The position numbers were made by a program, and so were the translations under genes. Shown piece by piece: positions 55,228 through 59,815 of a stretch of 64,000 bases of DNA. Numbering within the stretch: the first letter of the stretch is position 1; every line of letters starts with the position of its first letter. The notes beneath the pieces were generated by a model. That model saw only the letters and a program-made list of their open reading frames with translations, was not told the DNA's origin and did no database searches. This stretch comes from Escherichia phage vB_EcoM_ECO78. Where the stretch lies: sequence record PP526941.1. One strand, 5' to 3'.

Positions 55228-55231
55228 CAAT

Positions 55232-55258
55232 GGGGACCTTTCGGTCCCCATATTTTTA
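55232..55258 (+). terminator. terminator after gene 54 (GGGGACC-TTTC-GGTCCCC plus U-run); also downstream of the convergent 96-aa gene
   Basis: Perfect 7-bp stem followed by ATATTTTTATTT. Confidence 0.6.
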
Positions 55259-55546
55259 TTTACGGAATGAAATGAAAGCAGCAACTGAAGCAACTAAACT
55301 GTCTTCAATATAAACTTCAATTTTTACCGGAGCTTCTGACTCAAATTTACCTGTTACTACACCCTGAAAAATACTTTCAGTCTGTTCTGGTTTTGAAAAA
55401 TTTTCAGAAGGAAAAATTCCGAACTTTTTATCTGTTCCAAAAATTTTGATAAATTCATCGTAAACTGCTTCATTAAAAGCATTATCAGCAGGAATAACGC
55501 CTTCAACTACAAGTTCTTGACCTAAAAAGCGTAAAGAAGATTTCAT
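55256..55546 (-). CDS. hypothetical protein, 96 aa (alt-downstream small gene)
   Basis: ATG with AGGAA RBS. Confidence 0.6.
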   Translation of the reverse strand: MKSSLRFLGQELVVEGVIPADNAFNEAVYDEFIKIFGTDKKFGIFPSENFSKPEQTESIFQGVVTGKFESEAPVKIEVYIEDSLVASVAAFISFRK

Positions 55547-55606
55547 TTTGTGTTCCTCATGTTATGTCAGTAAGACTACTATAACACAACACGAGGGACT
55601 TGTAAA

Positions 55607-57664
55607 CTACATTTTGAACTTTTTAGACATTCCGTTGATGTTAACCAAAGAAGCTAAGATTTGAGAAACTTCATTTTCCTCTTCTTTTGATTCTTCTACA
55701 AGGAATTGATTAAATCCAGCCATTGGACGAACTTCACCAGTTTCCATTAGATGGTCGCCATCATATACCGATTCCTCTAATTGTTCAGAAGGAGGAACGA
55801 TTGTACCTTCGATTAGATACTTGTTATAAGCAGTTTCTTTCATAAAGTACGTACTTACTTTATTAATCTTCAGTAAAATTCCACGTGGTAGAATAACTTC
55901 AGCTTCTGATGGAAATCCTGATAAATGACCTGGAACGATAACTTTGATTCGTTCAGCTCCTTTAATTACCATACCCACGCTAGTTTCAGCATCTTCATTA
56001 GCATATGTAGAATGACTACCCATATGCATCAAATCTTCTGCATCAACGGAACCTTCTCCTTCACCAGAAAATACTGCGCCGGAATCATCTAGAGCCATAT
56101 AGTTTTTACCATGCTCGCCGAAGATATTTGGTTTAAGTGATGTTGATACGAAGTTCTTGAAATAGAACATTTTATTTTCAATGTTATGACGCAAAGTTTT
56201 AAAGGTAACTTCTTGTCCGCGATAAAGCGTAGTTCCTGGAGGAAGAACTGATCCTTTGGCAAAGGCAGAATCAAGCGTCTCAATATGTTTAATAGCTCGT
56301 TCCATATATTCTTCACGGGTAGAATCTGGTTTACCCAAAAGGAACGAGTTCATTTCAACATATGAATCTGCACAATAATCTTCAATTACATCAGATTCAG
56401 CTTGAGTTAATCCTTTTGGAGTTACTTCAGTACTTGCATATTCATACGCCTGAGCGGCAGATTCATTAATCAATTTATAAATGCCATTCATTACAAATTG
56501 AATAATAGCTGTCTTTTCATCTGGCGTGGCTTTAGAACCTTTAACTAAATCATTAATAATTTTCTTAATAACATCAAAGCTATTAGAAATATTAATGTCA
56601 GCAAGATCGCTTAAAATTTTATCAGTTTTATAATCAAAGAATTCTTTATTCTTTAAATATTCTTGAGAACCTTGATATGTTATATCGCTCTGCAACTTGA
56701 TAGATGGATCACGTAAACGTGCATGGGCTAATGCAATATGATTTCGGAAGTTTTCTAGTTCATAATCGCTAGATTTAAAACGAGAAGCACTTCTCATACC
56801 ACCAATAGCTCCTTTGTTGAAGTTTGAACCAATCTGAATAACGCCAGAGTTCATCGGACCTTCTGCTTTATATACCGGAACCTTAGATTCAAACTCTTGA
56901 TATTTCTTAGCAGCGAAGCTATCACCCTGAAGTGAAGCATCAACAGTAGAATATTGAGCTTGTGCTGCTAATCGACGACTAATTTTAGTTTTCTGAATAA
57001 CAGCTTGATCAGTGCGCTTATCATTTTCTAAAGCAATAGAAGCAGCAACAGCGACAGCTTTAGGAACAGCATTACCTGTTTTAACGTCTACATAAACATC
57101 ACCAACCTTTGATTCAACTTTTGTGAATAACTCAGTTGAAATAGGAGGTACACCTGGAATGTCTTCTAAATTGGCATTTTTACGGTAAACCATAATATAT
57201 GCATACTTTTTATCATAGTCCCAGATTTCCTTTAAAAGAACATAACGACCTGCTCCTTTAGTACGTACTAAACGGTCAGCAATAACTTGCATTTGACGAG
57301 CTGCGCCATTTGTTTTACTTTTTAGTACGCGGAATAAGCATGCATCAATTTTATACTGTTTCATTGTTTGAAGAGCAGTATCAAAAACAGCATTAATGAC
57401 ACCAATTGGATTTCCACCCAAGTTTTTAAGCTTAACCAGCGATAGTTTCTCATTAACACCTATCATTACGATATGCATCATTTTATCGCCTGGCTTAACG
57501 TTTTTATTTGTATCACCGCCAGAGGTGTATGTACAAAATCTAAATCCAGGAAGCACGCTTTCTTCACCAGCTTGAATAGCAAAAATTTGAGGTATTTTAT
57601 GCTTAGGATTTAAGTTAACAACCGGCGCCGAAGCGCCGTCAAATAATTCTGTAATAAGTTCCAT
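55607..57664 (-). CDS. Alt-like ADP-ribosyltransferase paralog (arginine-specific ART motifs), 685 aa
   Basis: N-terminus MELITELFD... closely similar to the upstream Alt over about 240 aa; C-terminal half has YRGQ, FVSTSL and SEAEVILPRG (R-S-ExE) but is otherwise divergent; ATG 3 nt after the upstream stop. Confidence 0.8.
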   Translation of the reverse strand: MELITELFDGASAPVVNLNPKHKIPQIFAIQAGEESVLPGFRFCTYTSGGDTNKNVKPGDKMMHIVMIGVNEKLSLVKLKNLGGNPIGVINAVFDTALQTMKQYKIDACLFRVLKSKTNGAARQMQVIADRLVRTKGAGRYVLLKEIWDYDKKYAYIMVYRKNANLEDIPGVPPISTELFTKVESKVGDVYVDVKTGNAVPKAVAVAASIALENDKRTDQAVIQKTKISRRLAAQAQYSTVDASLQGDSFAAKKYQEFESKVPVYKAEGPMNSGVIQIGSNFNKGAIGGMRSASRFKSSDYELENFRNHIALAHARLRDPSIKLQSDITYQGSQEYLKNKEFFDYKTDKILSDLADINISNSFDVIKKIINDLVKGSKATPDEKTAIIQFVMNGIYKLINESAAQAYEYASTEVTPKGLTQAESDVIEDYCADSYVEMNSFLLGKPDSTREEYMERAIKHIETLDSAFAKGSVLPPGTTLYRGQEVTFKTLRHNIENKMFYFKNFVSTSLKPNIFGEHGKNYMALDDSGAVFSGEGEGSVDAEDLMHMGSHSTYANEDAETSVGMVIKGAERIKVIVPGHLSGFPSEAEVILPRGILLKINKVSTYFMKETAYNKYLIEGTIVPPSEQLEESVYDGDHLMETGEVRPMAGFNQFLVEESKEEENEVSQILASLVNINGMSKKFKM

Positions 57665-57667
57665 GAT

Positions 57668-59761
57668 TTATCCTTGAACGAACTTGTAAGGCATGTTTGT
57701 AATATCTATGCAAGACGCAATAATTCCAAGAGATGATTCTACTTTTTGTTTAACATTTGATGAAACAAACGATGCAAAGTCAACTCTGTCTTCTATTTCA
57801 ATATCACCTGTCATTGCAACTACTTCACCGGTTTCCATTAGACGGTCACCGTCATAAATTACTGATTCGGTGAGTTCTTCCGTAGTCATAACTTCAGCTT
57901 GAATGAGTTTTGTATTATTAGATGTTGTTCCGTCATTATTAGAAGCATCAGTTATTTTATTAACTTTGACCATCAATCCGCGTGGTAGAATAACTTCAGC
58001 TTCTGTTGCTATTCCGAGACTTCCTGGATATACAACATTAACTTTATGAGCTCCATCAATTGCCCATCCTATTTGAACTTTAACGTATTCAGGATTTTCT
58101 TTATACGCTCTTATTTCGTTTGGATTAATAGTTATTCCTTCTTCATTTTTATCAACTGTCAATTCATTACGAGCTTCTGGTTCTAAAAGACCAATACCAG
58201 CATGCGTAATTCCAAAACGTCCAAAAATGATAGGAGTTAAAGAAGTAGATACAAAATTTCTGAAATAAAACACTTTATTTTTAACTAGTGCTTCGTATAT
58301 AGGAGCAGTCATGCTTTGAGCACGATAAACTGTAATGCCTTCTGGTATACGGTCACCGTTTTCAAAAGCTGAATCTAAGTTATTTATAGCAGATTCAATT
58401 TCTTTTTCACTCATTACATCATATCGTTCTGGATTGTAGCGACCCAAAAGAAGATTATTGATGTCAGTATATCCTGAACCGCAATACTCTCTAATGCCGC
58501 GCTTTTGTGATGGAGTATATTTAGAACCATCACGGGCAATAGTAATATCAATCATTGGACCTGCACCAATTCCAGAAAAGCTATAAATCATTCGTTTGAG
58601 GAATTTAGTTTTTGCTGCGTTCCAGGAATTTTTAGTTATTTCTTCCCAGACTTCATCTGGCTGTCCTTTACGGGTTTTATTATGTTTATCAAGCCAATTA
58701 TCTTTATATTCTTCAAAGAATTTATTAACAGCTGCTGCGTATTTCTCTAAACATTTTATTGAAGTAGTTGGTTCATTTTTAATCGCATTAAGAATTACAT
58801 CTTTAATTTTTTCAGAAACTTCATCAACCTCACTTTTTGAAAAGAATTTATAGTCATAGTGAAGTTCATTTGCAGTTCCTTCAGCAATAATTTTTGCTGC
58901 CTTAGTTTTAGAAGCTAATGAATTAATTCCAAGCTTCATTTCTTCTGCTTCGGGAATTAAAGGAGCGGTAGCAGGTTTATTAAAATTAGCTGCGGTAGAT
59001 TCATACTTCTGGAATAATTCACTTTCAAATCTAGAAGATTCTAATGATTGACTTTGCGCAATTGCTCTACGGGAAATTTTAACTTTAACAATAACAGCTT
59101 GGTCAGAACGTTTATCATTTTCTTGTGCAATAGATGCTGCAATTGCCTCATTTTTAGTTACTTGAGCTCCAGTATCTTTATTGATATAAACATCACCGAC
59201 CTTCGATTCAACTTTAGTAAAGAGCTCGGTACTAATTTCCGGAACTCCTGGAATGTCTTCTAGTGATACATTTTTGCGATGTATAAGAATATATGCATAC
59301 TTTTTATCATAATCCCAGAGTTCCTTAAGAAGGACGTATCTGCCACCTGAACGACTACGGATGAGCCTATCAGCAATAACTTGAATTTGTCGAGCTTGGC
59401 CAGCAGTTTTAGACTTAAGAATACGAAGCATACAAGCATCAATTTTATACTGACGCATAGTTTGCATTGCAACAGTAAAAACTGAATTGATATAATTAAT
59501 TGGGCTTGGTCCAAGACCTTTTAATTTAGCAATTGAACCTTTAGCAGTTAATGTAAAAGGAACAATATGCATCATTTTATCGCCCATCTTTAAATCACGA
59601 TTAGTATCACCTCCAGATGTATAGGTACATAAACGAAAGCCTGGTTGTTCAATTGCATCATCAACATGAACTGAAAAAATTTGCGGTATTTTCTTCTTTG
59701 GATTTAAGTTTGTAATCGGAAGAGTAGTATCTTCGTCAAATAATTCTGTAATGAGTTCCAT
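57668..59761 (-). CDS. alt: Alt, capsid-packaged NAD:protein ADP-ribosyltransferase, 697 aa from the second ATG
   Basis: MELITELFDEDTTLPITNLNPKKK...; ART motifs YRAQ, FVSTSL, TEAEVILPRG; GAGAGGA RBS; late promoter upstream. Confidence 0.88.
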   Translation of the reverse strand: MELITELFDEDTTLPITNLNPKKKIPQIFSVHVDDAIEQPGFRLCTYTSGGDTNRDLKMGDKMMHIVPFTLTAKGSIAKLKGLGPSPINYINSVFTVAMQTMRQYKIDACMLRILKSKTAGQARQIQVIADRLIRSRSGGRYVLLKELWDYDKKYAYILIHRKNVSLEDIPGVPEISTELFTKVESKVGDVYINKDTGAQVTKNEAIAASIAQENDKRSDQAVIVKVKISRRAIAQSQSLESSRFESELFQKYESTAANFNKPATAPLIPEAEEMKLGINSLASKTKAAKIIAEGTANELHYDYKFFSKSEVDEVSEKIKDVILNAIKNEPTTSIKCLEKYAAAVNKFFEEYKDNWLDKHNKTRKGQPDEVWEEITKNSWNAAKTKFLKRMIYSFSGIGAGPMIDITIARDGSKYTPSQKRGIREYCGSGYTDINNLLLGRYNPERYDVMSEKEIESAINNLDSAFENGDRIPEGITVYRAQSMTAPIYEALVKNKVFYFRNFVSTSLTPIIFGRFGITHAGIGLLEPEARNELTVDKNEEGITINPNEIRAYKENPEYVKVQIGWAIDGAHKVNVVYPGSLGIATEAEVILPRGLMVKVNKITDASNNDGTTSNNTKLIQAEVMTTEELTESVIYDGDRLMETGEVVAMTGDIEIEDRVDFASFVSSNVKQKVESSLGIIASCIDITNMPYKFVQG

Positions 59762-59784
59762 CATATCCTCTCTAGTGTTTATTC

Positions 59785-59792
59785 TATTTATA
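59785..59792 (-). promoter_or_regulatory. late promoter TATAAATA (minus strand) for alt
   Basis: Exact TATAAATA on the minus strand about 24 nt upstream of the alt ATG. Confidence 0.55.
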
Positions 59793-59797
59793 AAATT

Positions 59798-59815
59798 AAA
59801 GGCCCGAAGGCCTTT
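59798..59815 (-). other. intercistronic UUCG-tetraloop hairpin (AAAGGCC-UUCG-GGCCUUU) upstream of alt
   Basis: Perfect 7-bp stem; lies between the 62-aa ORF stop and the alt late promoter. Confidence 0.45.

Follow-up and report, generated by a model that had tools for sequence, protein, structure and literature searches.

Two tandem genes for predicted Alt-family ADP-ribosyltransferases in a T4-like Escherichia phage, and the deletion of most of the second gene in T4

The T4 protein Alt is packaged in about 40 copies per head and is injected with the phage DNA. Alt is one of the three ADP-ribosyltransferases (ARTs) with which reviews credit T4, the others being ModA and ModB (PMC8120803). ADP-ribosylation of RNA polymerase alpha at R265, and of other host proteins, is known only for T4 Alt (PMC8120803), and alt is a late-expressed gene in T4 omics data (PMC9697503). 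Mass spectrometry showed that the gp21 prohead protease cuts T4 Alt after ITE-6 and LTE-619, removing 63 C-terminal residues (Ali et al. 2017; PMC5694885). Here we describe two adjacent minus-strand genes of this family, gene 1 (alt) and gene 2 (a full-length alt paralog), in Escherichia phage vB_EcoM_ECO78 (PP526941.1). The DNA analyzed is a single stretch of 64,000 nucleotides, referred to below as the window. An earlier note, made from the sequence alone, had proposed that two such genes, of 697 and 685 codons, adjoin here, and both ORFs are present (Table 1).

Second copies of alt have been described in other phages. The pair in RB32 was annotated in 2006 as alt and alt.-2, and in many genomes both genes carry the RefSeq name 'Alt-like RNA polymerase ADP-ribosyltransferase' (the second copy in RB32 is YP_803136.1). 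Nolan et al. (2006) described T4 alt.-1/alt.-2 and ORFs in RB49 and 44RR as paralogous duplications of alt, one of them full-length (PMC1524935). [quoted passage not shown] The status of the paralog in relatives of T4, which the earlier note had left uncertain, is settled: the gene is widely annotated (~400 records) and has already been discussed in print. That is, the tandem pair is correct but already known, and its interpretation has been published. What we add is the mechanism of the deletion in T4, the strong constraint on gene 2, the retention of both protease sites, and the modular history of the two genes.

We think it probable that gene 1 and gene 2 are a late unit of two paralogous, arginine-specific, Alt-family mono-ADP-ribosyltransferases that act in five steps. 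Both genes would be transcribed late from the TATAAATA sequence at 59785-59792 and translated from adjacent ribosome-binding sites. Both proteins would then be incorporated in the prohead core, trimmed there by gp21 after ITE-6 and after an L-x-E motif (E632 in gene 1, E631 in gene 2), and injected along with the DNA. In the first moments of infection, they would ADP-ribosylate partly different sets of host proteins, a step that we propose because their helical regions and the loops between the S-T-S and E-x-E motifs differ. The evidence from our analysis is homology, intact motifs, the fold of gene 2, purifying selection, cleavage motifs, and gene order and signals. From it we infer co-transcription, packaging, cleavage, injection, enzymatic activity, and divergence of targets.

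Both proteins match the Alt family over their lengths. An alignment of the two products spans both from end to end and has 297 identities in 719 positions (41%; BLASTP, E 5e-158), far beyond chance, and the homology of gene 2 to T4 Alt extends over the full length (41% identity, E 4e-163). Both match Pfam PF03496 (ADPrib_exo_Tox) well above the cut-off of 23.4 bits (gene 1, 129 bits, 1.8e-37; gene 2, 71.9 bits, 5.8e-20) and PHROG 802, 'Alt-like RNA polymerase ADP-ribosyltransferase' (4e-257 and 1e-272). In addition, a match to PF26846 (Tevenvirinae_ADPRT) is precomputed for a protein that is 99% identical to gene 2 (P0001). A search of NCBIfam gave no match. These results support assignment of both genes to the Alt-family R-S-E ARTs of the C3/VIP2 type, and either protein would be expected to carry out NAD+-dependent transfer of ADP-ribose to arginine. 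Four parts make up each protein: the alpha/beta domain at the N-terminus, a region of helices, the R-S-E catalytic domain of the C3/VIP2 type, and a short propeptide at either end.

The similarity between the two proteins is uneven. They are 68% identical over amino acids 1-238 and 22% identical over 239-410, and the proposal that an N-terminal region of about 240 amino acids is similar and the remainder divergent was borne out. Identity is 42% over amino acids 411-515, which contain the R and STS motifs, 14% over 516-575, between STS and ExE, 55% over the ExE strand (576-605), and 36% in the C-terminal tail, which is still recognizably conserved in both paralogs. Conservation is lowest in the helical linker and in the STS-to-ExE loop region, and not in the catalytic core.

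All of the catalytic motifs quoted in the earlier note are present. Gene 1 has YRAQ (R480), VSTS within FVSTSL (S505/S507), and EAEVILPRG (E587/E589); gene 2 has YRGQ (R482), VSTS within FVSTSL (S507/S509), and EAEVILPRG (E587/E589). Across 17 aligned, diverse members of the family, the Arg is invariant, as are the two Ser residues of S-T-S and the two Glu residues of E-x-E. We checked gene 2 for loss of the Glu pair, and both E587 and E589 are kept. The E-x-E form is the signature of arginine-specific ARTs (PMC8120803), and a T4 Alt mutant called E577A by its authors is catalytically dead (PMC11404850). We take their E577 to be the second Glu of E-x-E, which is E576 in the numbering of the 682-amino-acid RefSeq protein. 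The offset of one may stem from counting an extra upstream ATG codon.

An AlphaFold (AF2) model of gene 2 had a pLDDT of 74.7 and a pTM of 0.65. Both ends of the model are disordered (amino acids 1-10 and 629-685). Between them are the alpha/beta domain, which in the model covers about amino acids 15-230, the helical region, and a confidently predicted ART fold that matches Vis, C3 and VIP2. No PDB chain matched gene 2 in a sequence search, and therefore no structure of the Alt family has been solved. The N-terminal domain alone matched nothing in Pfam (E up to 10), and nothing when used as a profile against PDB sequences. We also observed that the N-terminal domain shared by the two proteins has a weakly GNAT-like fold with an invariant K-x-x-G-x-[A/G] loop. 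It is a long shot that this domain is a ligand-binding or enzymatic module beyond a handle for packaging.

Gene 2 is under strong purifying selection, as expected of a constrained, conserved enzyme gene and not of a decaying duplicate. Compared to its counterparts in RB32, T2, and REP2, its dN/dS is 0.024-0.042, with 46-105 synonymous and 5-17 non-synonymous differences and dS no greater than 0.28. The dN/dS of gene 1 in the same comparisons is 0.026-0.066. By tblastn, proteins with at least 80% identity to gene 2 are encoded in 402 phage records (identity is ≥99% in 207 of them and 95-99% in 189); this set includes T2 and a 100% identical protein in JLBYU31, and both T2 and T6 are among the carriers of the gene. 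It is highly improbable that gene 2 is a decaying duplicate or a pseudoenzyme with only a structural role. Such a copy can decay, as T4 alt.-1/alt.-2 show (see below), but gene 2 has an intact frame of 685 codons, invariant catalytic residues, a confidently predicted ART fold, and dN/dS of ~0.03 gene-wide, so the sequence already contradicts decay.

We found that alt.-1 and alt.-2 of T4 correspond to the beginning of gene 2. The T4 record describes them as 'an old duplication of the first part of gene alt', and the RB32 record describes the full-length gene as 'alt.-2; apparent insertion'. When T4 is aligned with the window, the two are ~96% identical over the first 354 nt of gene 2, where T4 also has a 1-nt frameshift; the T4 sequence then skips to the final 20 nt of gene 2, stop codon included. 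T4 alt.-1 and alt.-2 (61 and 67 amino acids) correspond to codons 1-117 of gene 2 with ~96% nucleotide identity, and PHROGs 23015 and 15247 match gene 2 amino acids 1-56 and 62-117. In the window, the two breakpoints are marked by 9-bp direct repeats, CTAAAAAGT. Exactly 1699 bp between the repeats is missing in T4, one copy of the repeat is retained, and codons about 118-682 of gene 2 have been removed. We conclude that T4 alt.-1/alt.-2 are the relic of gene 2 left by a classic microhomology deletion and a frameshift. The polarity in the two annotations, duplication in T4 and insertion in RB32, is reversed: T4 carries a deletion.

The state found in T4 is the less common one. A 90-nt probe spanning the T4 junction (T4 record L001, 6064-6153) was intact in 91 phage records, and the deleted 1699-bp segment was found in 401 records at 90-99% identity. 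Therefore, the full-length paralog is the common state (~80% of records) and T4 is the exception. In T6, both halves of the junction are carried separately.

Both proteins have the motifs at which gp21 cuts T4 Alt. In the T4 Alt sequence, the ITE-6 and LTE-619 motifs are exactly at the mapped positions. Gene 1 has ITE at residues 4-6 and LTE at 630-632, followed by Ser 633. Gene 2 has ITE at 4-6 and LEE at 629-631, followed by Ser 632. The L-x-E motif in both is about 55-65 amino acids from the C-terminus, and the propeptides predicted for gene 2 coincide with the disordered ends of its model. Retention of both gp21 motifs in both proteins supports the proposal that both are packaged and injected, and both would enter the head and be matured there by gp21. 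A different possibility is that gene 2 is made late, is not packaged, and acts within the cell that makes it (on late proteins of the host or phage, for instance), its N-terminal domain having a purpose other than targeting to the head. We regard this as improbable. Gene 2 keeps, along with the two gp21 motifs, the MELITE propeptide, which in T4 Alt is a leader of the capsid-targeting type (PMC5694885). Its predicted propeptides are disordered in the model, and its N-terminal domain shares 68% identity with the corresponding domain of Alt, a packaged protein.

The duplication that gave rise to the pair is old. In the Dhakavirus phage dhaeg, the two genes likewise stand in tandem, again 3 nt apart (L005, 1937-6124). 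Between the window and the Dhakavirus, the first copies are 65% identical in the middle region and 83% identical in the ART domain (80% by BLASTP), and the second copies are 45% and 59% identical in these regions. In contrast, the paralogs within one genome are 21% identical in the middle region and 37% identical in the ART domain. Positional counterparts in different genera are thus closer than neighbors, and therefore both catalytic lineages predate the split between Tequatrovirus and Dhakavirus. The N-terminal domains have the opposite pattern: neighbors in one genome are 65-68% identical, and counterparts across genera are 46-47% identical. This pattern suggests that the N-terminal domains were homogenized in the past (concerted evolution), or that they evolved together with a partner that is specific to the genus, for example the head core. 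Recent gene conversion of the N-terminal regions in this genome was ruled out, as synonymous divergence between them is saturated (dS ~1.3).

Two catalytic lineages, each conserved across genera, make it reasonable to propose different targets for gene 1 and gene 2, as the earlier note had done from the divergence of the catalytic halves. We consider it unlikely that gene 2 is instead a redundant back-up of Alt that modifies the same targets (RNA polymerase alpha and others) and is kept for dosage. The two proteins do have the same domain plan, the E-x-E signature, and the same likely route of expression and packaging; T4 and at least 90 other records lack gene 2, and loci with a single hybrid gene exist. 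However, identity between the paralogs is only 37% across the ART domain and is 14% between S-T-S and E-x-E, a part that in C3-like ARTs includes the substrate-recognition loops. In addition, the lineages are separately conserved between genera (83% and 59%), and the presence of gene 2 at ≥95% protein identity in 396 records with dN/dS ~0.03 is unexpected for a redundant copy.

Gene 1 also differs from the Alt that has been studied. Compared to T4 Alt, it is 70% identical overall, with 237 of 238 residues identical in amino acids 1-238, 32% identity in 239-410, and 62-65% identity in the ART domain. Its ART domain is 80-83% identical to that of the first Alt copy of the Dhakavirus. Because the N-terminus of gene 1 is T4-like and the ART domain is nearer to the Dhakavirus copy, gene 1 is a mosaic in which the catalytic cassette was exchanged between lineages, and it is not the biochemically characterized enzyme. 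A T4-type Alt and a full-length gene 2 also occur together, for example in phiC600P9. Four database proteins (P0003-P0006) are graded chimeras that join an N-terminus of the gene 1 type to a remainder of the gene 2 type. The last of these is encoded immediately next to alt.1, and the alt.-3 promoter region comes directly after it (L006, 5001-7090; a contig from Logan SRR19633722). This locus is a single hybrid gene with the N-terminus of gene 1 and the catalytic half of gene 2, and it apparently arose by unequal crossing-over between the tandem copies. It is possible that the hybrid is an artefact of assembly, although two contigs carry it.

The signals around the pair are those expected of a late unit. 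The earlier note had placed a late promoter at 59785-59792, and an exact TATAAATA is there; co-expression of the pair, which it had also claimed, is plausible. This T4-type motif occurs 22 times in the window compared to 9.1 occurrences expected, and it is present at the equivalent position in T4, RB32, T2, and REP2. The program-made ORF for gene 1 extends from 57668 to 59764 (698 amino acids, beginning MMELITE), as there is an additional in-frame ATG one codon upstream. It is likely that gene 1 starts at the ATG at 59761 and not at 59764, as in T4. Use of 59764 is improbable because this codon is too near (2 nt) to GAGG, and a start at 59761 agrees with the T4 annotation and with the mass-spectrometric numbering of ITE-6 (PMC5694885). 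The junction between gene 1 and gene 2 is caaggaTAAatcATG, with a gap of 3 nt, and it is identical in RB32, T2, REP2, and T4. As had been proposed, gene 2 begins 3 nt after the stop codon of gene 1, with its ribosome-binding site, AAGGA, inside gene 1. A scan of the window detected no terminator-like or late-promoter sequence between the two genes. The simplest reading is that gene 1 and gene 2 would be co-transcribed late, with translational coupling, because neither a terminator nor a promoter intervenes, both the late promoter and the junction are conserved, and alt is late in T4.

The limits of this transcript can be predicted. Just upstream of the late promoter is a hairpin that overlaps the alt.1 stop codon and that is likely a terminator shielding the alt unit from transcription of the upstream gene 30/alt.1. 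This GC-rich hairpin was missed by a scan for consensus terminators because of its short T-run. A hairpin here is expected because a conserved terminator upstream of alt has been reported in T4-like genomes (Nolan et al. 2006; PMC1524935). On the downstream side, the first terminator after the pair is a hairpin that separates gene 54 from alt.-3, and it is likely the 3' end of the late transcript.

A second exact TATAAATA is inside gene 1 (58381-58388, minus strand), where it is encoded by the A-I-N-N codons of a conserved AINNLDSAF. It is also in RB32, T2, and REP2 and is absent from T4. This internal sequence could yield an additional late transcript for gene 2, but it is probably fortuitous. 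We set it aside as a promoter for gene 2, as it is spelled by conserved codons and is missing in T4.

Several points weigh against the proposed unit of two capsid-delivered enzymes with different targets. Gene 2 lacks a late promoter of its own, and its junction with gene 1 is of the translational-coupling type. At least 91 phage records, including T4, live without a full gene 2, and phages on laboratory hosts therefore do not require gene 2, which could in part duplicate the role of Alt. The hybrid locus shows that the catalytic half of gene 1 can be lost too. The catalytic half of gene 1 is sufficiently different from the studied T4 Alt (62-65% identity) that its targets, too, are extrapolated. 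The structural model is of gene 2 only. Lastly, in the searchable literature we found annotation-level mentions of the second paralog and no biochemical, functional, or virion-proteomic study of it.

We also considered a stronger version of the proposed two-enzyme unit, in which gene 2 is a fourth, functionally distinct, capsid-delivered ART of the T-even phages. Its lineage would be older than the split between Tequatrovirus and Dhakavirus, its targets (possibly proteins of defence or translation) would be unlike those of Alt, and it would have been overlooked because T4 deleted the gene. We put the chances of this at about even. If true, the picture of T-even host takeover with three ARTs is incomplete for ~80% of Tequatrovirus genomes.

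Knowledge of phage ADP-ribosylation is nearly all from T4. Most close relatives, including T2 and T6, have an additional full-length, strongly conserved Alt paralog, and the first Alt copy exists in at least two catalytic versions. Therefore, what has been learned of Alt targets may not apply directly to T4-like phages used in therapy or found in the environment. The enzyme encoded by gene 2 is a candidate for an additional host-takeover or anti-defence activity. The main value of these results is that T4 is unrepresentative with respect to the ADP-ribosylation enzymes of T-even phages.

The window is a segment of a Tequatrovirus (T4-like) genome. The ~4.9 kb around the pair is 97.7% identical in nucleotide sequence to RB32 and RB33, and 342 phage records align across at least 80% of it. 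Gene order (Table 1) is the same in T4, RB32, T2, and REP2. The position of the pair, with gene 30/alt.1 on one side and gene 54 on the other, and its strand, which is opposite to that of the baseplate genes, agree with the maps of these phages and of dhaeg. We observed an early-type T4 promoter (TTTACA, 17 nt, TG-TATAGT; 55578-55606, minus strand) directly after the stop codon of gene 2 and ahead of alt.-3; in T4, this promoter is right at the deletion scar. Mutants of T4 Alt.-3 with C-terminal extensions escape the CmdTAC defence system (PMC11618068).

Table 1. Positions in the window of the two alt-family genes, their predicted protein features, and nearby genes and signals
Feature	Position	Strand	Comment
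Genes 29, 48, 54 in this order, then block of alt.-3, gene 2, gene 1, alt.1, DNA ligase		plus (29, 48, 54), then minus	from the window ORF map
Bidirectional hairpin terminator	55230..55251	both	separates gene 54 from alt.-3; first terminator on the downstream side of the pair
alt.-3	55256-55546	minus	
Gene 2 (full-length Alt paralog; RB32 name alt.-2)	55607..57664	minus	685 aa + stop
Gene 2 predicted propeptides	aa 1-6 (57647-57664), aa 632-685 (55610-55771)	minus	
Downstream 9-bp direct repeat CTAAAAAGT	55618..55626	minus	gene 2 last codons; right breakpoint of T4 deletion
Gene 2 ART domain	aa 416-625 (55790-56419)	minus	
Gene 2 E587-A-E589 codons (E-x-E)	55898..55906	minus	both Glu invariant
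Gene 2 S507-T508-S509 codons (S-T-S motif)	56138..56146	minus	S507 and S509 invariant
Gene 2 R482 codon (YRGQ; NAD-binding arginine of R-S-E triad)	56219..56221	minus	invariant in family alignment
Gene 2 helical region	aa 239-415 (56420-56950)	minus	
Gene 2 N-terminal alpha/beta domain	about aa 15-238 (56951-57622)	minus	
Upstream 9-bp direct repeat CTAAAAAGT	57317..57325	minus	gene 2 codons about 114-117; left breakpoint of T4 deletion
Gene 1 (alt)	57668..59761	minus	697 aa + stop; MELITE start
Gene 1 predicted propeptides	aa 1-6 (59744-59761), aa 633-697 (57671-57865)	minus	
Shine-Dalgarno AAGGA, gene 2	57671..57675	minus	within last codons of gene 1; 6 nt before gene 2 ATG
Extra in-frame ATG, gene 1	59762-59764	minus	one codon upstream of MELITE; 2 nt from GAGG
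Shine-Dalgarno GAGG, gene 1	59767..59770	minus	5 nt before ATG 59761
Late promoter TATAAATA, T4-type	59785..59792	minus	24 nt upstream of gene 1 ATG
Hairpin AAAGGCC-TTCG-GGCCTTT	59798..59815	minus	read from sequence; overlaps alt.1 stop codon, just upstream of late promoter

The enzymes of the window can be compared to known systems. The bacterial R-S-E toxins C3, VIP2, iota, and Vis (PF03496) share their catalytic fold with the pair, and likewise have the R, S-T-S, and E-x-E motifs. They are 10-25% identical to it, and the phage enzymes add the family-specific N-terminal domain and propeptides that would be removed by the protease. Whereas the phage Alt enzymes are presumed to be delivered from the capsid, toxins of this clade rely on a secretion system or on a toxin B component. 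T4 ModA and ModB are also phage R-S-E ARTs of the same broad clade, and they act on host transcription and translation proteins (PMC8120803, PMC5512222). As described, they are set apart from the pair in that they are ~200 amino acids, early, not packaged, and without the Alt N-terminal domain.

T4 Alt (gpalt, 682 amino acids; UniProt P12726 according to PMC8120803) is encoded in the same slot between gene 30/alt.1 and gene 54, downstream of the same late promoter, and its domain plan, R-S-E motifs, and ITE-6 and L-x-E motifs are common to both proteins of the window. However, T4 Alt is the enzyme with mapped targets (RNA polymerase alpha R265, MazF R84, EF-Tu, and others), and neither catalytic half in the window is that of T4 Alt. 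Another such system is alt.-2 of RB32 (YP_803136.1), together with its orthologs in T2, T6, and ~400 Tequatrovirus records. This is the same gene as gene 2: the RB32-type orthologs have 95-100% protein identity to gene 2 in 396 records, with no substantive difference.

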